A model generated the notes under the pieces. That model saw only the letters and a program-made list of their open reading frames with translations. It was not told the origin of the DNA and did not search any database. From NCBI GenBank assembly GCA_045614605.1, contig JAZLDH010000018.1, forward strand, positions 67,258 to 131,257: DNA of 64,000 nucleotides. The letters run 5' to 3'. Origin of the DNA: Candidatus Onthomorpha sp. (GTDB taxonomy: Bacteria > Bacteroidota > Bacteroidia > Bacteroidales > P3). Each line of letters starts with the position of its first letter. The stretch's first letter is position 1. A program made the translations under genes and the position numbers. Of this stretch, positions 6,189 through 63,840 are shown in pieces.

Positions 6189-7857
6189 CGTAATCAAATT
6201 CTTTAATAAAATTTTCAAGGAATGAATATAATTCTTTATTGTTATATACTTCTGGTACTGAGATTAATAATCTTAATAATGAAGGTCCGTAAATTTCTAC
6301 TGCAAGTTGAATTAGGTTTTTTATGTCTGTGAGTGGGTAGTTGTTAGAGTTGATTAGTTCGGCGTAAGAAGAAAGTGCAATAAATACGTCTCTTTCAACA
6401 AAATCCACAGTAAGCAATTCTTCAATCAAGAGTTTTAGAAGTTCAGAGGAGTTAATTGGAATTTTTAGTAAGTCAAGTTGTTTGACCCATGTAGAGATAA
6501 GCATTGTAAGTGTGGTGTATAGGATTTGTAATCGTCCTTTGTCTAAAAAATTATTAGATTTAATTTGTGCAATCTCTTCTTCAACTATCTCATATAGGTT
6601 TTGGAAAACTTCTGTCGCTTTTTCTAATTGTCCAATAAAGTAAAGCAATTCTCCGTATGCGATTTTTGCAAAGTGATTTTCGGGTTCTATTTCCAAAATC
6701 TTAAAGGCGTACACCTCTGCTAACTTCTTATTTCCTAATTGCATGTAAAGACGAGACATTGTGTGGTAAATATAGATTTTAGAAAAGAGAATTTTGTCGG
6801 AAAGAAAAGGAAATAATAGGTTTTTTTCAAGGACTTCTTCGCAGATTTCTAAACATTGTTTTGGCTTTTCTTCTTCTAAGTAAATGTTTATCATTTCTTT
6901 GTAAGTCATTGCATAGCTTATCAATAATTCTTGACGCTTTTTCTCTGGTGTGTCTTTTTGTTGTTGTAGTTTTTCTAATAGTTCTGCTATTTTTTTTAGG
7001 ATTTTGATTCTTTCTTTCTTTTTTCCGCTGTCGATATAGTTTATGTATTTTTTTCTAAGCATGTCTATATCGTCAGGTTCTATGCAAAGAAAATACTCAC
7101 ATGCGTTTAATGCTTTGTTGGGTTCGTTACATCTTTCATAAAATTCGGAAAGCATTTCCCAATAATACGCATTTTGTGGGTCGTATTCTACGAATTTTTC
7201 AACGCAAGGAAAGAATATTTTTTTGTATTTAGGAACTTTCTCGCATAAGTCTGCTGTTGTAGAAAGCAAATCATCAGGAATGACTGTGGAAGAAAACATA
7301 TAATCGTTCGCTCCATAGCTTTTGATTATTTCTTCTTTGCTATTGGTGTATTTCTTGTAGCAAAGTTCAAAGGCTTTTAATAAAAAATCTTTTGCTTTTT
7401 CGTATTCGTTTAGTTTTATGTATTGATAGGCTGCTAAGTTTAAGATATATTCGTTTACTTCATACTTTAGACAATCCTCCGCTGTTTTTAGTGCGTTTAG
7501 GTGTTTGCCTTCTCGTGAGAGTATTTGAGCTCCTTGATAGGTTAAAAGGACAATTTGTTTTCTGTCTTTTAATTCTTTTTTGGAATTTAAAAGATAAACT
7601 AATGCTTTTTCGTAATCGGCTATCGCAATAAACTCTGCTTTTCTTACAATAAGCTCCTCGTTTGTTGGATACTGCTTTAAAGAAAGTGTTATGGCTCTTT
7701 CTAATAATTTGTATTCATCTTCTTCAAGGAAGTAGTAGTCTATAATATCTATCCATTGGTCTGCGTCATAGAATATTACAGAATCCCCATTTTTTATCTT
7801 ATCGGAAAAAGCCTTTGTTAAGGAATATATGTAATGATTTTCGTCTGCAAAATCCAT
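6172..7857 (-). CDS. TPR-like helical repeat protein, function unknown
   Basis: 561 aa, cytoplasmic, with repeated roughly 34-aa helical hairpins rich in Y/A/L/E/K (for example AYQYIKLNEYEKAKDFLLKA). Confidence 0.55.
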   Translation of the reverse strand: MDFADENHYIYSLTKAFSDKIKNGDSVIFYDADQWIDIIDYYFLEEDEYKLLERAITLSLKQYPTNEELIVRKAEFIAIADYEKALVYLLNSKKELKDRKQIVLLTYQGAQILSREGKHLNALKTAEDCLKYEVNEYILNLAAYQYIKLNEYEKAKDFLLKAFELCYKKYTNSKEEIIKSYGANDYMFSSTVIPDDLLSTTADLCEKVPKYKKIFFPCVEKFVEYDPQNAYYWEMLSEFYERCNEPNKALNACEYFLCIEPDDIDMLRKKYINYIDSGKKKERIKILKKIAELLEKLQQQKDTPEKKRQELLISYAMTYKEMINIYLEEEKPKQCLEICEEVLEKNLLFPFLSDKILFSKIYIYHTMSRLYMQLGNKKLAEVYAFKILEIEPENHFAKIAYGELLYFIGQLEKATEVFQNLYEIVEEEIAQIKSNNFLDKGRLQILYTTLTMLISTWVKQLDLLKIPINSSELLKLLIEELLTVDFVERDVFIALSSYAELINSNNYPLTDIKNLIQLAVEIYGPSLLRLLISVPEVYNNKELYSFLENFIKEFDYDEEFD

Positions 7858-23646: not shown

Positions 23647-23992
23647 GTGCGACACTGTTCTATCGCTGGAAGCTAAGCTTCGAGAGGAAAGTCCGAGCAA
23701 CGCAGAGCATCATACTACCTAACGGGTAGGCAAAGCAAAGAACGCTTTGACAGCAAGTGCCACAGAAAATTACCGCCCTTTAAAAGGGTAAGGGTGAAAA
23801 CGTGAGGTAAGAGCTCACGCTATGGTTTAGCGATAAATCATGGGGGTAAACCTTATGAGTTGAAAGACCAAGTATATCGGAATATAGGGGCTGCTCGTCC
23901 TTTCCGAGGGGTAGGTCGTTAGAGGCTTGTCGTGAGGCAAGCAGTAGATTAATGATAGAATTATGACAGAACTCGGCTTATAGGTGTCGCAC
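23647..23992 (+). ncRNA. rnpB: RNase P RNA (bacterial type A)
   Basis: P1 pairing GTGCGACAC...GTGTCGCAC. P4 strands GAGGAAAGTCCGAGC and ACAGAACTCGGCTTA. Conserved GGTAAGGGTGAAA and GGTAAACC elements. Confidence 0.93.
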
Positions 23993-24053
23993 ATTTTTTT
24001 ATTTTTTTTCTCTTTTCCGAAACAAAATCCTTAGAAATAGTGTCATTCATTCA

Positions 24054-31250: not shown

Positions 31251-31274
31251 AATCAAAACTTAATCTGCCTAATT

Positions 31275-31305
31275 TTTGCAGTTATTAAAAAATGTTTTAC
31301 CTTTG
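31275..31305 (+). promoter_or_regulatory. Bacteroidota sigma-A promoter (TTTG-N19-TAccTTTG) driving the structured RNA, copy A
   Basis: TTTG at 31275-31278, a 19-nt spacer, TACCTTTG at 31298-31305. Identical to the copy B promoter. Confidence 0.75.
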
Positions 31306-31310
31306 TGGGC

Positions 31311-31617
31311 AGAAATTTAAAACTAAAAAAAGGAGGACTAAAAGGAGCAAAAGAAAGACTATAATTTAGACTTAGTATTTTAATACGACATATAAAAGCG
31401 TTTTTGCTTATATTTGGTTGTATGAAACCTGCAAAATTTCATTAAAAACTAATCAAAAGATAAGTAAGACGCTCACGAGTAATATCGTGGGCTTATCTTA
31501 TTTGATTAGTTAGGTAATTGCAGGACCTCATACAACGATAAGAAGAAAGTCCCACGTTTTTTATGCCTTTGAGTCAAAGAAAGAAATAACATATCGCCAT
31601 TTGGGACTTAGGCAAAG
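31311..31617 (+). ncRNA. Unclassified structured RNA or long 5' leader, copy A
   Basis: No conserved ORF. A 122-nt extended hairpin at 31416-31537. A 3' pairing AAGTCCCA (31547-31554) / TGGGACTT (31602-31609). Collinear homology with the reverse complement of 63388-63697, with compensatory substitutions in every stem. Confidence 0.7.
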
Positions 31618-31662
31618 AAAGAAAAAACAAATTTAAATTAATAATTTAAAAATTTAAATAAA

Positions 31663-32280
31663 ATGAAACAACAAGAAAGAAAGTTAAGAGATAAGAGAGA
31701 GTTTATTAAATATTTATTATTAGATATTATTACTTTGGGTTTTTATGAAGCGTTTATGCTTTCTAATATTTCAAAAGAAATAAACTTGATTTCAAAAGAC
31801 GGAAAACGTACAATGAATTATTTGCCACTATTTTTAATGTTTGTTGGTGGTGTTATGCTTTGGGTTATTGTGTATTTTCTTACAAAGAATTTGTTGGTTA
31901 TTGACCCAGACTTATGGAGTGAAAAGGATTTAACAACAGTGATTACAGCTTCGTTTGTTGCTCTTTTAGGGTTTTTACTAATTATAATAATTGGTATAAG
32001 TATCATTGTTTGGATGTGTCGTATTACTAAAAGAATTTCAAACGAATTAAGTGTTAGAAACATAGATGCTAAATTCAGTGCTAAAACTTTTTGGCTTTTC
32101 TATTTTGTTTATCTTGTGTATGAGATGATTTGTTCTGGTGTTTGTGATGTTTTAGGAATTAAACTTGTTTGGGTATACGTTATTTGTTTACCTGGTTATA
32201 TTTTATACTATACATTTATGTTTAAGTTAATAAAGGCAATGAATTTATTAAACGCAGACTACAACCAAAAAGGGGAATAA
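31663..32280 (+). CDS. Small multi-pass membrane protein with DUF4234-like N-terminal segment
   Basis: 205 aa, about 5 TM segments. FIKYLLLDIITLGFYEAFMLSNISKEIN resembles the DUF4234 TxG(I/F)Y motif. Confidence 0.6.
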   Translation: MKQQERKLRDKREFIKYLLLDIITLGFYEAFMLSNISKEINLISKDGKRTMNYLPLFLMFVGGVMLWVIVYFLTKNLLVIDPDLWSEKDLTTVITASFVALLGFLLIIIIGISIIVWMCRITKRISNELSVRNIDAKFSAKTFWLFYFVYLVYEMICSGVCDVLGIKLVWVYVICLPGYILYYTFMFKLIKAMNLLNADYNQKGE

Positions 32281-32336
32281 TCAAATGAAAATTTGGTAAA
32301 AAGAAAATTGAATTAAAAATTAATAAATTAAAAGAA

Positions 32337-32780
32337 ATGGAAAAAAAATTAAACTTAGGATTGGAAATAATCTATTGGGGATTATTGCTTATGACGCTTT
32401 ATGTATTTCACTGTGCTTTGCATTGGTCTGGAATGGGAATAGTTGCACTTTGTTTAGTTCCTGTTGGAATTGCCTTAGGAATATGGCAAATAATCAGAGA
32501 AAAGAAAGCAGGTGAAAAAATGGCTGTTGTTATTTTAAACTTTTTAACAAAATTATGCTTATTTACAGGCTTAGTTTTTGTTGCACAACGTTGGCCAGGA
32601 GGTGGAGCATTTATGCTTTTTGCTTTTCTTCTTTATTTTGTTTCAGTTGCTGTTTCATCTTGCATTGCAGTTTATAAAGAAAGAAATGAAAAGTTGTACA
32701 TATTATTATTAATAGCAATATTATCGTATAGTTTTGGTGCTTTATTTTATAACGTATACGAATTACAAGGATTACAATAA
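32337..32780 (+). CDS. Small 4-5 TM membrane protein with duplicated (H/R)W(S/P)G motif
   Basis: 147 aa. LHWSGMG and QRWPGGG each follow a TM helix. This is possibly related to the GldL-N-like HWPG hairpin proteins (recalled from memory, weak). Confidence 0.55.
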   Translation: MEKKLNLGLEIIYWGLLLMTLYVFHCALHWSGMGIVALCLVPVGIALGIWQIIREKKAGEKMAVVILNFLTKLCLFTGLVFVAQRWPGGGAFMLFAFLLYFVSVAVSSCIAVYKERNEKLYILLLIAILSYSFGALFYNVYELQGLQ

Positions 32781-33172
32781 TGGATAAAGAAAATTTAAAA
32801 TTAGCATTATTAAGAATTGCTATTGCTTTGATTCTTTTTGAATTTGCTATAGGGGGTATTCTTCGCATTTTTGCTTTTGTAGCCTTTGAAGAGAATATAA
32901 GTAAAATGGTAATTTGTGGAGCTGTTAGTGTAATAGCTTTTGTTGTGAGTTTGTTTTTATTGAAAATACACAAACATCACAGATTAAAGTTAGATTACAA
33001 AAAAGGAAAGAGAAGATTAATCTTCGTATGTATAGGATTAATAGTTGCTGAATTGATAGTTAGTTTTTTAAGTAGATACTTTGCACTATATCTTTCCGCA
33101 TATTTAATAGTTACGATTGCAACAATTTTAACTTTTGTAGTAGATTTTCTTTGTTGTAAGCACAAAAAATAA
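32780..33172 (+). CDS. Small 4-TM membrane protein
   Basis: 130 aa. TAATG overlap with the upstream gene. Four hydrophobic helices. Confidence 0.55.
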   Translation: MDKENLKLALLRIAIALILFEFAIGGILRIFAFVAFEENISKMVICGAVSVIAFVVSLFLLKIHKHHRLKLDYKKGKRRLIFVCIGLIVAELIVSFLSRYFALYLSAYLIVTIATILTFVVDFLCCKHKK

Positions 33173-33183
33173 AGCATTAACTT

Positions 33184-33585
33184 ATGAATGCTAAAACAAA
33201 AAAGGTTGGTTACATCTTTTTATTGCTCGCAATAGTAGTAGTGTCTTTGATAATATTTCAAATAGTTACTCAAATAGATGCTCTTGATGAATATGAAAGT
33301 TATATTTCAATGCTTTTAGCCTTAGGTACGGGCTTATTGTTGAGATATGTATTTACAAGATACTGTAAACGACTTAATAGAAAAGATGAAACATACGAAA
33401 TTATTTCAAAAGAAGAGAGAAAGGCTCTCTTAACATTGATAATTTTATTTGTAACCCTTGCAATAGCGATGTTTTCAATTATAAATTTTCAAAATGATAT
33501 GTTTTTGACTTTTGTAGTTTTGATTTTCATCTTGGTTATTGCTGGTGGTCTTATTTTTAGATTATGGATTAAAGACCAAAAATAA
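33184..33585 (+). CDS. Small 4-TM membrane protein
   Basis: 133 aa, four hydrophobic helices. Starts 11 nt after the previous gene. Confidence 0.55.
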   Translation: MNAKTKKVGYIFLLLAIVVVSLIIFQIVTQIDALDEYESYISMLLALGTGLLLRYVFTRYCKRLNRKDETYEIISKEERKALLTLIILFVTLAIAMFSIINFQNDMFLTFVVLIFILVIAGGLIFRLWIKDQK

Positions 33586-33620
33586 TTAAATATATTTATT
33601 AACAAACAAATTTAAAGAGT

Positions 33621-36440
33621 ATGAAGAGAAAAATATTCTCATTATTGTTGTTGTGCTTGATGTTTAGCACGACTATGTTTGCTCAAAATAAAGAGATTCA
33701 ACTTAATCTTAATGAGCAAATAGAATTAAACGAAACAGTACGTACAGGAAAGTTGGAAAACGGATTGACGTATTTTGTAAAATCAAACAAAAAGCCTGAA
33801 AATCTTATTGAATTTCGTCTTGCAGTGAATGCAGGCTCTGTTTTAGAAGAAGATAATCAAGTTGGATTGGCTCACTTCTTGGAACACATGGGCTTTAATG
33901 GTTCAAAACATTTTCCAGGTAACACAATGGACGATGAAACTAAAAAGGCGGGTTCGTGGAATAATGCTTACACAAGTTTTGATGAGACTGTGTATATGAT
34001 AAACTTGCCAAAAGAACATCTTGACTTAGGTTTGAAAGTTTTAGACTCGTGGGCGTACGGAATGTTGCTTACAGGAGAAGAAATTGACAAAGAAAGAGGT
34101 GTGATTATTGAGGAATGGAGACGTAGTCAAGGTGGAGAAGAAAGAATGTGGAATGAAATAAAGAAGAAAATGTTGCAAGGTTCAAAATATGCTGATAGAA
34201 TGCCTATTGGAACTTTGGAAAATCTTCAAAATTTCAAATATTCTGACATTAGAAGTTTCTATGAAAAATGGTATAATTCCGATAATATGGCTGTGATTAT
34301 TGTTGGAGATTTCAATATTGACTCAATGGAGCAAAAGGTTGTTGATTATTTTAGAATGTCTCCAAAGACTTGCACTCAAACACAAAGACCATACATTGCT
34401 GTACCTAATAATAAAGAACCTATTATAGCTATTGCAAGTGATAAAGAGGCAACAAGCACAAGTATAGAATTGTATTACAAACACCCTTCTAAGGAAGTTA
34501 AAACAATTGCTGATTTTCGTGAACAACATTTAGTATATGGTTTGTTTGAAGTAATGTTTAATGATCGTCTTCAAGAAATTTCTGAAAAGAAATCTTGTCC
34601 TTATATGTATTCATACGCATATTATGGAGGCTTTATAGGTCGTAATCATTCTGCTTATACAACACGGATTTCTGCAAAAGAAGGAAAATTAATGGAATCC
34701 TTAGAATTGGTAATGTTAGAAAATAGAAGATTGCAACAACACGGCTTTTTGCAATCGGAGCTTGATAGAGCAAAAGATGAATTGTTGGAATCATACGATA
34801 GAAGTGCAAAAGAGGAATCAAAAACCAATAGTAGCAGTTTCGCAGATAGGTTAGTGTATTATTTTCTTGAAAACGAACCAATGCCAAGTGCAGATAAGAA
34901 AAACGAATGGGCAAAAGCGTTAATGGAAGATATTACTTTGGAAGAAGTAAATGCTCTTATCTCAAAATGGATTACAGAAGAAAATTTCGTTTGCACTATC
35001 ACAATGCCAGAAAAGAAAGGTATTAAAGTGCCAACAGAAGAAAATGTGTTGAAACTTATTGAAAAATGTAAGAAAGCAAGTACAAAACCTTGGATTGATA
35101 ATGTTAAAACAGAACCTTTCCTTGCACAAGAGCCAAAAGGTGGTAAGGTTGTAAGTCAAAATAAGAATGAAAAATTCGATTACACAGAATATACTCTTTC
35201 AAATGGTGCAAAAGTAATCTTAAAGAAAACAAACCACCAAAATGATCAAATCTTAACTCGTGCAGAATCAAAAGGAGGAAACTCATTGTATGAAGATAAA
35301 GATATGATGAATGTTGATTACGCTTCAAGTATAGTAAATTCGAGTGGAATCGGTACATACGACAATACTCAATTGATGAAATTTATGAAGGGTAAGTCAT
35401 TTGGTTTATATTCTTATATTTCTTCTATTAAGGAAGTAATAGACGGAAGTTGTGCTCCAAAAGATTTTGAAACACAATTGCAATATTTTTATTTAGTTTT
35501 TACTGCTCCAAGAATAGATAAGGAAGTTCTTGCAAGCGAAGTAGATAAATTGAAAAGTCGAATCAGTATGATGAAAAATGATCCTGAGTCTATTTTGTAT
35601 GAAAAGCAATATAAGGCTATGTATCCAAATGATAAGCGTAATATATACATACCTACTGAGGCTCAAATAAAGGAATTGAATACTGATAAGATGTTGAAAA
35701 TATTCAAAGAACGTTTCTCTGATGCTTCTGACTTTACTTTCACTTTCGTAGGTAATATTGACGAAAAAACAATGTTGCCTTTGATTGAAAAATATATTGG
35801 TGGACTTCCTTCTTCTAATGGTAAAAATGCAGAAATGTGGAAAGATCGTTCGCCTGATTTTGCAAAGGGTGTTGTAGATGAAACAGTTTATGTGGGAGAA
35901 GCTGAAAAAGGTATAACAACTATCGTATTTGAACATGAGTTTGATTATAATAATGACCGTTTGGCAACAGATGCTTTGAACGAAGTTTGTTATAATAAAT
36001 TATATGAAACAATTCGTGAAGAATTAAGTGGAACTTATACTCCTTCATTCTATTTGAGTTATTCTAAATATCCAAAATCAGAATTATATGCCTCATATAA
36101 TCTTGATTGCAACCCAAATACAATAGATCAACTTACACAAGCTACTTTTAAAGTTTTTGATAAAATTATTTCAGAAGGTATTTCTGAGGAAGATTTAATT
36201 AAAGCAAAAGAAACTTTGATATTAGATAGAAAGAAAAGTGTAGAAAACAATTATTTTTGGTTAAATCAAATTTTAGGAAGTAGGTTTAATGGATATGAAA
36301 TGCAAACTTTGGAAGAATATACTGCTGCGGTAAATGCTTTGACAGTAGAAGATATTAAAAAGGTTGCAGAAAAATATCTAAAACACGATGAGTATGTAAG
36401 AGTATCTCTTAAACCTGCTGCAATGAAATCTCAAAAATAA
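33621..36440 (+). CDS. M16 family (insulinase/pitrilysin-like) zinc peptidase, secreted
   Basis: 939 aa with a signal peptide. The inverted zinc motif HFLEHMGFNGS (HxxEH). Two M16 halves. Confidence 0.9.
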   Translation: MKRKIFSLLLLCLMFSTTMFAQNKEIQLNLNEQIELNETVRTGKLENGLTYFVKSNKKPENLIEFRLAVNAGSVLEEDNQVGLAHFLEHMGFNGSKHFPGNTMDDETKKAGSWNNAYTSFDETVYMINLPKEHLDLGLKVLDSWAYGMLLTGEEIDKERGVIIEEWRRSQGGEERMWNEIKKKMLQGSKYADRMPIGTLENLQNFKYSDIRSFYEKWYNSDNMAVIIVGDFNIDSMEQKVVDYFRMSPKTCTQTQRPYIAVPNNKEPIIAIASDKEATSTSIELYYKHPSKEVKTIADFREQHLVYGLFEVMFNDRLQEISEKKSCPYMYSYAYYGGFIGRNHSAYTTRISAKEGKLMESLELVMLENRRLQQHGFLQSELDRAKDELLESYDRSAKEESKTNSSSFADRLVYYFLENEPMPSADKKNEWAKALMEDITLEEVNALISKWITEENFVCTITMPEKKGIKVPTEENVLKLIEKCKKASTKPWIDNVKTEPFLAQEPKGGKVVSQNKNEKFDYTEYTLSNGAKVILKKTNHQNDQILTRAESKGGNSLYEDKDMMNVDYASSIVNSSGIGTYDNTQLMKFMKGKSFGLYSYISSIKEVIDGSCAPKDFETQLQYFYLVFTAPRIDKEVLASEVDKLKSRISMMKNDPESILYEKQYKAMYPNDKRNIYIPTEAQIKELNTDKMLKIFKERFSDASDFTFTFVGNIDEKTMLPLIEKYIGGLPSSNGKNAEMWKDRSPDFAKGVVDETVYVGEAEKGITTIVFEHEFDYNNDRLATDALNEVCYNKLYETIREELSGTYTPSFYLSYSKYPKSELYASYNLDCNPNTIDQLTQATFKVFDKIISEGISEEDLIKAKETLILDRKKSVENNYFWLNQILGSRFNGYEMQTLEEYTAAVNALTVEDIKKVAEKYLKHDEYVRVSLKPAAMKSQK

Positions 36441-58404: not shown

Positions 58405-58490
58405 AAGATGTTTCTTTGTTTTTGAAACTATAAAGTTATAAAAAAAATCAAAAAAGTTTGTCAGTAATCAAAAAAGTTGTACTTTTGCAG

Positions 58491-58590
58491 TGGGTAAGTC
58501 TTGTACGACCAGCTCCCTCTGAATCTCCCCAGGGCGGGAACGCAGCAAGGTAAGGAGGTTGTAGCGGTGCGATATAAGTAGCTTGCCCTT
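58491..58590 (+). ncRNA. ffs: Signal recognition particle RNA (small bacterial 4.5S type)
   Basis: Domain IV-like CCCCAGGGCGGGAACGCAGCAAGG. Terminal pairing GGGTAAGTC / AGCTTGCCC, followed by a T-run. Preceded by TTTG (58457-58460)-N19-TACTTTTG (58480-58487). Confidence 0.8.
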
Positions 58591-58600
58591 TTTTTGTACC

Positions 58601-62957: not shown

Positions 62958-63368
62958 TTAATTCTTTCTTTTGAACTCTTTTTTCACTCCATCACAACTT
63001 AATACTAACGTTTCTTTATCTACTTTTTCTATAATGATAACATAATTAAAAATGTTAAATTGTTTTTCGCCTATTGTATATATGAAACTTTCTTGTTCCC
63101 AGTTTTCATAGCCATCTTCTCCCTCCCATACATGTTCCAAATATTCCATTACGCCAGCCCCTTCTTCAAAGAAACAAATAGTTTCTATTCTTTCCATTAT
63201 AGGAGAATTATTACCACTAAATGTTACTTTACCAAACCAAGAACCTACAAGTTCATTTTCTTGGTCAAATACTGTTCTTTCGCAAGAAGAAAAAGTTGTT
63301 AATGTTATTATTGATAAAAATAATAACGAAATAATTTTAATTGTTCTTTTCATTTCTTTAATTTTCAT
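62958..63368 (-). CDS. Small lipoprotein, function unknown
   Basis: MKIKEMKRTIKIISLLFLSIITLTTFSSC carries a lipobox. The ORF-track TTG start at 63404 lies in the conserved RNA block, so ATG 63368 is preferred. Confidence 0.6.
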   Translation of the reverse strand: MKIKEMKRTIKIISLLFLSIITLTTFSSCERTVFDQENELVGSWFGKVTFSGNNSPIMERIETICFFEEGAGVMEYLEHVWEGEDGYENWEQESFIYTIGEKQFNIFNYVIIIEKVDKETLVLSCDGVKKEFKRKN

Positions 63369-63387
63369 TTTTTTATTTTTACTTTTA

Positions 63388-63697
63388 CTTTGCCCAAGTC
63401 CCAAATGGCGATTACTTATTTTCTTTCTTTGACTTCAAGGCATAAAAAAACGTGGGACTTTTTTTCTTATCGGAGTACGAGGTCCTGAACTACCTAACCA
63501 ACCAAATAAGTAAAGCCCACGAAAATCATCGTGAGCGTTTACTGCTTTACATTGATTGGTTTGTATGAAATTGTTCAGGTTTCGTACCTCCAAGTATAAG
63601 CAAACACGCTTTTATATGTCGTAAAAATTTAACTCAGTCTTAATAATAATTATTCTTTGTCTCCTTTTTGTCCTCCTTTTTTATGGTTTAAATTTCT
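63388..63697 (-). ncRNA. Unclassified structured RNA or long 5' leader, copy B
   Basis: Its reverse complement is collinear with 31311-31617. The extended hairpin is at 63472-63591. AAGTCCCA/TGGGACTT pairing is conserved. Stem differences from copy A are compensatory. Confidence 0.7.
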
Positions 63698-63702
63698 GCC
63701 CA

Positions 63703-63733
63703 CAAAGGTAAAACATTTTTTATTAACGACAAA
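63703..63733 (-). promoter_or_regulatory. Bacteroidota sigma-A promoter (TTTG-N19-TAccTTTG) driving copy B
   Basis: On the minus strand, TTTG = 63733-63730, then a 19-nt spacer, then TACCTTTG = 63710-63703. Confidence 0.75.
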
Positions 63734-63781: not shown

Positions 63782-63840
63782 TTACCATCCGATGGTAACA
63801 AATTATCCTCCGAGGATAAAACTTTACCAACGGAGGATAA
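63782..63840. promoter_or_regulatory. Three 17-bp dyad-symmetric sites phased at 21 bp (candidate operator array)
   Basis: TTACCATCcGATGGTAA (63782-63798) and TTATCCTCcGAGGATAA (63803-63819) are perfect 8-1-8 palindromes. TTACCAACgGAGGATAA (63824-63840) is a hybrid of their half-sites. Centres are at 63790, 63811 and 63832. Confidence 0.5.

Follow-up and report, generated by a model that had tools for sequence, protein, structure and literature searches.

A probable family of structured leader RNAs with built-in promoters upstream of genes for exported proteins in gut Bacteroidales

Two copies of one element, here called A and B, lie in a 64-kb stretch of DNA from Candidatus Onthomorpha sp. 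This whole stretch is the sequence that we studied and is called the window; the positions of both copies are window positions. Each copy consists of a promoter and a leader of about 330 nucleotides (nt), and the two are inverted relative to each other, 32 kb apart, in DNA that is AT-rich throughout (G+C content of 28-35% per 4-kb window, mostly 32-35%). The DUF4234 gene that follows copy A is itself followed by genes for three small predicted membrane proteins and then an M16 peptidase. Copy B leads into an open reading frame (ORF) for a lipoprotein-type protein, with a signal peptide that ends in FSSC and no match to any Pfam family. The link to envelope proteins, which an earlier note on this DNA had drawn for both copies, extends to a whole family of such elements, as described below. 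The coordinates of the features are collected in Table 1.

The earlier note had presented copy B as a diverged counterpart of copy A with compensatory substitutions in its stems. The reverse complement of 63388-63733 indeed aligns with 31275-31617 throughout, at a mean column identity of 86%, and the blocks listed as identical (AAAAATGTTTTACCTTTGTGGGCAGAAATTTAAA, AAGGAGGAC, ACGACATATAAAAGCGT, AAGTCCCACGTTTTTT, GTCAAAGAAAGAA and ATCGCCATTTGGGACTT) are all found. A 24-nt block over the promoter box and the first transcribed bases has two exact occurrences in the window, with 0 expected by chance. When both sequences are read against the fold, the paired substitutions prove to be as described: GTATGA/TCATAC in A is GTACGA/TCGTAC in B, CCTGCAA/TTGCAGG is CCTGAAC/GTTCAGG, GATAAG/CTTATC is GTAAAG/CTTTAC, and CTAATCAAA/TTTGATTAG is CCAATCAA/TTGGTTGG, where a G-U keeps the pairing. 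The change in the basal stem is also real, although this stem is longer than the note had seen. It comprises 9 base pairs (bp), GTTGTATGA/TCATACAAC in A and GAGGTACGA/TCGTACTCC in B, and holds three compensatory pairs instead of one. By our reading of both sequences, eight pairs in total differ between A and B through compensatory changes on both sides and one through a change to G-U; no pair is disrupted. The apical stem is the same in both copies while its loop differs. Folded separately, as the note had proposed, both copies give the same 120-nt hairpin, with z scores of -6.9 and -3.5 against dinucleotide shuffles.

The first related metagenome loci came to light through homologues of the DUF4234 protein encoded after copy A; in these loci the element precedes different first genes. 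Exact-protein look-ups of both downstream proteins gave no match. Two of the related metagenome contigs begin inside the element, which suggested that it is a repeat. Pattern scans brought in more than 230 further copies from Candidatus Onthomorpha, a genus named from chicken-gut metagenomes, and from related gut Bacteroidales. The first scan used the apical hairpin as its pattern in one genome per species and returned at least 116 loci; among the matches listed about 111 are genuine, and five have no similarity to copy A or B. Nearly all of the genuine loci belong to Candidatus Onthomorpha and other Bacteroidales assemblies from the guts of yak, buffalo, sheep, goat and other animals. The second scan covered metagenomes with an anchor placed outside the stems and returned at least 120 loci. 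As lower bounds, seven assemblies contain at least 12, 10, 8, 7, 7, 7 and 6 copies. The copies are 70-97% identical.

Two family copies (loci L080 and L081; L numbers are our handles for loci) sit on short contigs binned as metagenome-assembled genomes of Clostridia bacterium. Mis-binned Bacteroidales contigs are more likely here than a true presence outside the Bacteroidales.

For the structure of the family we used a covariance model, R1, of 186 positions and 46 pairs. R1 has exactly two matches in the window, copy B at 189 bits and copy A at 186 bits, and scores only 25-27 bits on their antisense strands. The fetched loci hold 217 further matches; loci L223-L242 were left out of this search. 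Covariation was analysed in a genome set of 67 distinct copies and in an independent metagenome set of 99 distinct copies, the latter collected without reference to the stems. On the R1 alignment 96.3% of the cells in the genome set pair and 27 pairs change on both sides; the corresponding values for the metagenome set are 96.2% and 28 of the 46 pairs, with 700 such cells. In both sets 0 of 500 shuffles reached the observed values of pairing and covariation, and a slid control, with partners moved by one to three columns, gave 36-43% pairing (37-41% for the metagenome set). The two-sided changes affect eight of the nine pairs of stem 1 and all pairs of stems 2 (7/7) and 3 (9/9) in the genome set, and 7/9, 7/7 and 8/9 pairs, respectively, in the metagenome set. 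One covarying pair, for example, is found as UA (32 copies), AU (30), CG (16) and GC (13).

A plain MAFFT alignment given to RNAalifold, which is fitted to no model, recovered stems 1 and 2 and the apical stem, with 15 two-sided pairs. It failed to align stem 3, which the covariance-model alignment resolved. Copies folded individually have a median of 45 bp spanning the apex. Cells with G-U outnumber those with A-C (481 vs 56), and this excess, with the difference between the sense and antisense R1 scores, places the structure on the RNA of the sense strand. The hairpin is thus real and strand-specific. Paired positions change together in both sets and not independently, which supports the central claim of the earlier note, that the pattern reflects selection on RNA structure and neither a recent duplication nor a coding constraint. 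The element has the covariation-supported, conserved secondary structure that is looked for in a cis-regulatory leader RNA.

Other parts of the core hardly vary at all. It begins with the block ACGACAUAUAAAAGCGUUUUUGCUUAUA, nearly invariant across the family, and the small P1 helix is 96-99% paired in the genome and metagenome sets without any variation. The internal loops of the long hairpin, GAAAY/RACCUC and AAUUUCA/UAGGUA, are conserved, and stem 4, which is A-rich on one strand and U-rich on the other, shows no free covariation.

Some other readings were tried and rejected. A leader peptide after the second U-run is not kept as an ORF, since copy A reads AUG-CCU-UUG and onwards where copy B reads AUG CCU UGA. 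Within the hairpin, the (N)UGAAA... frame lacks a conserved start and a conserved stop, and the compensatory changes in the stems are incompatible with coding. A K-turn at the small internal loop is ruled out from the sequence because tandem G-A pairs are impossible there.

The promoters of both window copies are of the Bacteroidetes type, TTTG-N19-TACCTTTG. By the published Bacteroides promoter consensus, transcription would start near 31310 in copy A and near 63698 in copy B. The note's reading of this promoter holds for the family: TTTG-N17-23-TAnnTTTG stands at a fixed distance upstream of the core in 148 of the 191 copies with enough flanking sequence, against 70 of 3000 random windows (2.3%). 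Further upstream, beyond the promoter, the DNA is without conservation across the family. The promoter scan that we ran looks for sigma-70-type promoters and is uninformative for those of Bacteroidetes.

On the other side of the element, an ORF on the same strand begins within 260 nt after 199 of 219 copies, at a median distance of 152 nt from the apical hairpin. The element is therefore tied to both, with a constant position and orientation between an upstream promoter and a downstream coding gene; promoter and transcription start are here consensus matches only. By a crude test, signal-peptide-like N-termini occur in 143 of 191 distinct downstream proteins (about 75%), compared with 411 of 1256 background ORFs, and a lipobox in 47 of the 191 N-termini compared with 88 of the 1256. 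Among 148 downstream proteins searched against Pfam, 14 have BspA-type leucine-rich repeats (LRR) and 11-13 have WD40/beta-propeller domains; most are without any family. BspA-type LRR proteins have been linked to host interaction. The genes do not share the one coherent metabolic or transport function that a metabolite riboswitch would lead us to expect, because their products are heterogeneous: LRR and WD40 proteins, lipoproteins, a DUF4234 protein, an M16 peptidase and, for the most part, proteins without a Pfam match.

Taken as a whole, these data make it highly probable that the element is a functional family of structured 5′ leader RNAs. How such a leader would act is suggested by its apical hairpin and the segments that follow. 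The hairpin, GCUCACGA-N6-UCGUGGGC followed by UUUUCUUAUUU, was flagged as terminator-like in both window copies. It has an energy of -11.9 kcal/mol and forms in the nascent transcript in the computed fold, and the 11 nt after its stem contain a mean of 8.3 U, with at least 7 U in 204 of 210 copies. In form it thus matches an intrinsic terminator, which has a GC-rich stem of 5 bp or more, a short loop and an adjoining U-tract; we call it T1. Its 3′ arm, Y1 (UCGUGGGCUU), is nearly invariant even in copies collected without reference to the apical stem. In sharp contrast to the two-sided changes in stems 1-3, its 5′ arm varies on one side only, by wobble-compatible transitions, the haplotypes being GCUCACGA (62 copies), GCCUGCGA (9), GCCCGCGA (7) and GCUCGCGA (5). 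An invariant strand with a partner that varies one-sidedly would be under a second constraint, as expected of a strand with two partners.

A candidate for the second partner is segment X, which is conserved in all copies and is followed in most by a second U-run of 6-8 nt. In every haplotype X is complementary to Y1 over 6-10 bp. Compensatory changes between them are few. A G at position 1 of Y1 goes with a C after X in L131, L137 and the divergent L168, an A at this position goes with a U after X in the second, decayed copy of L157 (4159-4347), and GAG in Y1 goes with a U in X in the second copy of L074 and in L143, L154, L177, L202 and L162. X is also complementary to a segment further downstream, Y2, with 97.3% of cells paired and joint forms such as GUUCCA/UGGAAC, AGUCCA/UGGACU and GUCUCA/UGAGAC. 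Y2, together with GGGCA, can in turn pair with segment e (UGCCU..AAGUC; 90.1% of cells paired). The X:Y2 and e:Y2 helices are mutually exclusive, and the family is compatible with both.

Both window copies have what we call the long architecture, in which X is AGUCCCACG and Y2 is present in 116 copies and absent in 25. In the short architecture X is AAGUCCACG, AAGUUCACG or AGGCUCACG and forms 9-10 contiguous pairs with Y1; Y2 is absent there in 45 of 49 copies. One further possible pairing, read from the sequences between segments that are both invariant, is that of AGCGUUUU in the invariant 5′ block with AAAACGCU at the 5′ side of the apical hairpin, and it would account for the invariant 'bulged' C at that place.

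Table 1. Positions of the two copies, their parts, the adjoining genes and other RNA genes in the window
Feature	Position	Strand	Details
Copy A	31275-31662	+	Promoter and leader of ~330 nt
Copy A, promoter	31275..31305	+	-33 TTTG 31275-31278; -7 box TACCTTTG 31298-31305
Copy A, 5′ domain	31310..31383	+	Purine-rich AAAAAAAGGAGGACUAAAAGGAGC; the leader's variable part
Copy A, conserved block ACGACAUAUAAAAGCGUUUUUGCUUAUAUUUGG	31384..31416	+	Holds small hairpin P1, AAGC 31396-31399 : GCUU 31406-31409
Copy A, long hairpin (120 nt)	31417..31536	+	In individual folds, RNAalifold consensus and covariance model R1
Copy A, stem 1	31417-31425 : 31528-31536	+	Long hairpin
Copy A, stem 2	31428-31434 : 31518-31524	+	Long hairpin
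Copy A, stem 3	31449-31457 : 31501-31509	+	Long hairpin
Copy A, stem 4	31459-31463 : 31493-31497	+	Long hairpin
Copy A, apical hairpin T1 and U-tract	31471..31503	+	Terminator-like in consensus scan
Copy A, T1 5′ arm GCUCACGA	31471-31478	+	
Copy A, T1 loop	31479-31484	+	
Copy A, T1 3′ arm Y1 UCGUGGGC	31485-31492	+	
Copy A, first U-rich tract UUAUCUUAUUU	31493-31503	+	Directly after Y1
Copy A, segment X AAGUCCCACG	31547-31556	+	Followed by second U-run 31557-31562
Copy A, 3′ domain	31564..31614	+	e UGCCU..AGUC 31564-31575; Y2 UGGGACUU 31602-31609; AGGCA 31610-31614
DUF4234 membrane protein gene	31663..32280	+	First gene after copy A
Copy B	63369-63733	-	Promoter and leader of ~330 nt
Copy B, promoter	63703..63733	-	-33 TTTG 63730-63733; -7 box TACCTTTG 63703-63710
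Copy B, core	63438..63623	-	Covariance model R1, 189.1 bits; long hairpin 63472-63591
Copy B, apical hairpin	63515-63536	-	Y1 63515-63522; terminator-like in consensus scan
Copy B, segment X	63451-63460	-	Followed by second U-run 63444-63450
Copy B, 3′ domain	63388..63442	-	e 63431-63442; Y2 UGGGACUU 63396-63403; GGGCA 63389-63393, within UUGGGCAAAG (63388-63397)
Lipoprotein-type ORF	62958..63368	-	After copy B; 136 amino acids, starts MKIKEMKRTIKIISLLFLSIITLTTFSSC
RNase P RNA class A, bacterial	23647-23996	+	Rfam, 254.8 bits; ordinary housekeeping RNA
Bacteroidales small signal recognition particle (SRP) RNA	58485-58592	+	Rfam, 100.9 bits; ordinary housekeeping RNA

The earlier account of the structure, the promoter and the envelope link stands, and it had missed the terminator-like apical hairpin, the second partner of Y1 and the large multicopy family. 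CCCACG with its T-run, which the note had suggested as the end of the transcripts, is a candidate for that role. With these included, each copy may be viewed as a self-contained expression module, in which a housekeeping-type Bacteroidetes promoter would drive a leader of about 330 nt that serves as the 5′ untranslated region (UTR) of the downstream gene. Within it, stems 1-3 would be free to vary as long as they pair, while the internal loops, the A/U-rich stem 4 and the apical stem would be held constant. The apical hairpin of 5′ arm and Y1, with its U-tract, would act as the intrinsic terminator T1. Alternatively, Y1 would pair with X about 55 nt downstream, and the second U-run directly after X would make this helix a second terminator, T2. 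Pairing of X with Y2 further downstream would lock the read-through state, and Y2 could itself be taken up by segment e. The resulting chain of exclusive helices, 5′ arm:Y1, Y1:X, X:Y2 and Y2:e, is what suggests the design of an attenuator. A putative effector, be it protein, small molecule or RNA, would recognize the conserved loops, set the helices and so decide whether the polymerase reaches the gene, and the outcome would be a regulon in which genes for exported and surface proteins are controlled together. We infer that the promoter is transcribed, that termination takes place at T1 or T2, that the Y1:X helix is the working switch and that the effector exists, and attenuation of the downstream gene in cis is accordingly put forward tentatively, as the most likely function among those considered, held with somewhat less than even confidence.

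A number of points weigh against this proposal. The start site and the 3′ ends are placed by their resemblance to known signals in the sequence. The long hairpin is very stable (about -44 kcal/mol) and would form before X is made, so Y1:X could arise only through a pseudoknot or fold-back geometry or with the help of an effector that unfolds the apex. With a 'loop' of 55 nt, such a terminator would be unusual. Efficient termination at T1 would leave no ready explanation for selection on the 3′ strand of the long hairpin. Independent covariation events for Y1:X, X:Y2 and e:Y2 are few because the segments are highly conserved, and the invariance of Y1 could come from recognition by a protein instead. 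Alignments fitted to R1 lean toward the modelled structure, which the plain alignment and the slid controls answer only in part. Finally, the downstream genes share an export route and no metabolic theme, which argues against a classical metabolite riboswitch.

The fold-back geometry can be taken further, into a new class of riboswitch-like sensor, responsive to a ligand or a protein, that would by exchange of pairing partners control much of what the clade secretes or carries on its surface. The 120-nt hairpin would fold back at its large conserved internal loop, with arms of about 18 bp each, and arms of equal length would bring the apical stem beside the base of the hairpin. Once opened, the apical stem would exchange partners, P1 AGCGUUUU pairing with AAAACGCU and Y1 with X. 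The product would be a double pseudoknot whose 3′ helix is the terminator stem, and one signal could switch dozens of genes for exported proteins. This extension of the attenuator proposal is a bold one, and we regard it as unlikely as it stands.

The alternative that best survives the data, although we consider it improbable, is that the leader contains no switch and is a constitutive element of messenger RNA stability or processing, either protecting the 5′ end or providing a site for RNase III or another processing enzyme that sets the mature 5′ end; the alternative pairings would then be incidental or serve folding. The 5′ UTR of E. coli ompA, for instance, protects its messenger from 5′-end-dependent decay. 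A very stable, loop-interrupted hairpin of about 45 bp is a typical substrate of double-strand-specific RNases or a protective 5′ structure, and the many unrelated exported proteins downstream, together with the apparent portability of the modules between genes, fit a generic expression module. However, protection alone leaves unexplained the strictly conserved sequences of the internal loops, the invariance of Y1 opposite a partner that varies on one side, and the conserved X and U-run with the co-variation of X with Y1 and Y2. The hairpin also begins about 105 nt from the inferred 5′ end and not at the end itself.

Since every copy is equipped with a promoter and two terminator-like U-tracts, it could also be asked whether the copies encode paralogous, trans-acting small RNAs (sRNAs), about 190-250 nt long and ending at one or the other U-tract, with read-through or a secondary effect accounting for expression of the gene downstream. 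Multicopy sRNA families with canonical promoters exist in Bacteroides, such as FopS (PMC11697453), and the conserved single-stranded blocks could be seed sequences. Yet the co-oriented ORF that follows 199 of 219 copies does so at a tightly distributed distance, and the sequences inspected showed no second promoter consensus in the stretch from the U-runs to the start codon. The 3′ domain is conserved beyond both U-tracts, and the variable stems argue against a common antisense target. Stand-alone sRNAs therefore seem to us a distinctly poor account of the family. The FopS RNAs themselves are 65-70-nt trans-acting sRNAs that repress susC mRNAs (PMC11697453). Like the present element, FopS and GibS occur in the Bacteroidales with numerous paralogues in each genome, have TAnnTTTG-type promoters and are connected with outer-membrane and surface proteins. 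The element, by contrast, is linked in cis to its gene as a leader of 250-330 nt that contains a 120-nt hairpin. Identity with FopS/GibS is rejected on size and on the mode of action as described, and the two show no evident similarity, although no direct comparison of sequences was made.

Least probable of all, and in our judgement very hard to sustain, is a palindromic repeat at the DNA level (like miniature inverted-repeat transposable elements (MITEs), repetitive extragenic palindromic (REP) sequences, ERIC or Correia) or a recombination site that shuffles promoters between surface-protein genes: there are many copies, contigs are broken within them, related strains have different gene orders after the same leader, the window copies are inverted and single-stranded DNA also tolerates G-T wobbles, but the copies are old, divergent and covary freely in their stems instead of being near-identical, their orientation to gene and promoter is constant, the R1 score is strongly strand-asymmetric, phage, plasmid and viral collections hold no match, and neither terminal inverted repeats and target duplications at the copy boundaries nor a consistently adjacent recombinase was noticed, in each case without a systematic search. 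ERIC/IRU, the Correia elements of Neisseria and the BOX elements of pneumococci spread as near-identical DNA copies in either orientation. They too are multicopy, intergenic, long imperfect palindromes that can carry promoters, enter 5′ UTRs and break assemblies; the present element differs in its compensated stem divergence, conserved loops, fixed orientation and strand-specific structure. A MITE/REP/ERIC-type element was rejected on these grounds (70-97% identity with covarying stems, fixed orientation), with the search for terminal repeats and target duplications not exhaustive. An invertible promoter of the kind found in Bacteroidales (an inverton) was rejected as well, as only a 6-7-nt loop stands between the two hairpin arms, both of them downstream of a promoter that always faces the gene.

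Returning to the attenuator proposal, the element resembles known attenuators and riboswitch platforms, such as the protein-dependent ribonucleic antiterminator (RAT)/terminator systems of BglG, SacY and LicT and the ZTP pseudoknot terminator, in several respects. It is a 5′ leader with covarying stems around conserved loops, its Y1 would have two exclusive partners, GC-rich helices are followed by U-tracts, and a predicted chain of alternative helices lies upstream of a coding region. It differs from them in that the putative switching strand is at the tip of a 45-bp hairpin, with its alternative partner about 55 nt away. It also has two terminator-like sites, no Rfam match and an effector that is putative; its genes share export and not a pathway, and there are at least 6-12 copies per genome, each with a conserved promoter. 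GOLLD, ROOL, HEARO, OLE and raiA are mostly stand-alone genes. Like these RNAs the present one was found from sequence alone, is large and covaries strongly, whereas it is consistently a promoter-proximal leader and, as sampled, belongs to one clade of gut Bacteroidales.

In Rfam 15, at gathering thresholds, the window matches only the RNase P RNA and the Bacteroidales small SRP RNA, both of use in assigning the genome to the Bacteroidales, and permissive scans of both copies gave only sub-threshold chance matches, e.g. a plant microRNA precursor at 25.9 bits against a threshold of 90. There was no match to the element among IMG/VR viral contigs, PLSDB plasmids and GenBank phages. No description of it was found in the searchable literature on such a leader or motif or on Onthomorpha. 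The element thus apparently represents a family of structured leader RNAs that the literature searched has not described before, unusual in its architecture and with the promoter built in.

Post-transcriptional control is poorly charted in the phylum of the Bacteroidales. If the proposed function is correct, the family offers a handle on how surface and secreted proteins, including the BspA-type LRR proteins, are co-ordinated in Candidatus Onthomorpha and its relatives, which are abundant and uncultured in animal guts. It would also add an orphan regulatory RNA that carries its switching strand at the apex of a 45-bp hairpin, with two terminator-like sites and a built-in promoter. As an annotation marker, the element can serve to place promoters, 5′ UTRs and true start codons for many exported proteins that are so far hypothetical, and the family accounts for breaks in the assembly of these metagenome-assembled genomes.

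The 5′ domain between the promoter and the core is poorly conserved and has at least three forms in the family: one with GGAGGAC, one with AUGCCUAUGGUAA and a short form of 25 nt. In the minimum-free-energy fold its A-run and GGAC pair with the GUCC of segment X and with the second U-run. The 5′ domains of both window copies (31330-31348; 63660-63680) contain the Shine-Dalgarno-like motifs AAGGAGGAC and AAGGAG, about 300 nt before the start codon. These occur in only one of the three forms, and to our knowledge the phylum of the Bacteroidales generally makes no use of Shine-Dalgarno pairing.

Upstream of copy B (63782-63840) there are 17-bp palindromes of the form TTAYM-N7-KRTAA, which on the minus strand, the strand of transcription, read TTACCATCGGATGGTAA, TTATCCTCGGAGGATAA and TTATCCTCCGTTGGTAA. 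Similar arrays of 2-4 palindromes, 90-300 nt upstream of the core, are found at L003, L040, L051, L059, L061, L067, L072, L087, L093, L096, L112, L119 and other loci. They precede 30 of 168 copies, compared with 61 of 4000 random windows. Arms and spacing stay the same while the centres vary, a pattern that suggests operators bound by a dimeric DNA-binding protein, or else small hairpins. In other genomes direct repeats such as CTTTGCGA are found where the palindromes would be.

Divergent and decayed copies were also seen. L035 (6625-6810, 7006-7193) and L157 (4543-4730, 4159-4347) carry tandem second copies in which the 3′ strand of the long hairpin is decayed and X and Y2 are kept. In the divergent second copy of L074 (1839-2028) the apical 3′ arm, X and Y2 share the same G-to-A or C-to-U change. 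In the L051 copy at 6929-7114 a poly(A) of about 37 nt replaces the usual AAAGAAAGAAAA between e and Y2, which could be a slipped-strand expansion or an assembly artefact.

In closely related strains the leader of the copy A type stays at the front of its locus and the genes behind it are rearranged. The order in the window (31270-36440) is DUF4234, three small membrane proteins and the M16 peptidase; L003 (8316-13483) has the three small genes first, L001 (1-3653) two WD40 genes and L006 (1-4371) the M16 peptidase. The leader may be a recombination hot spot or a portable cassette, and promoter and leader together may be a unit that is reshuffled between surface-protein genes. Contigs that start or end inside the element are L001, L006, L066, L070, L095 and L111.

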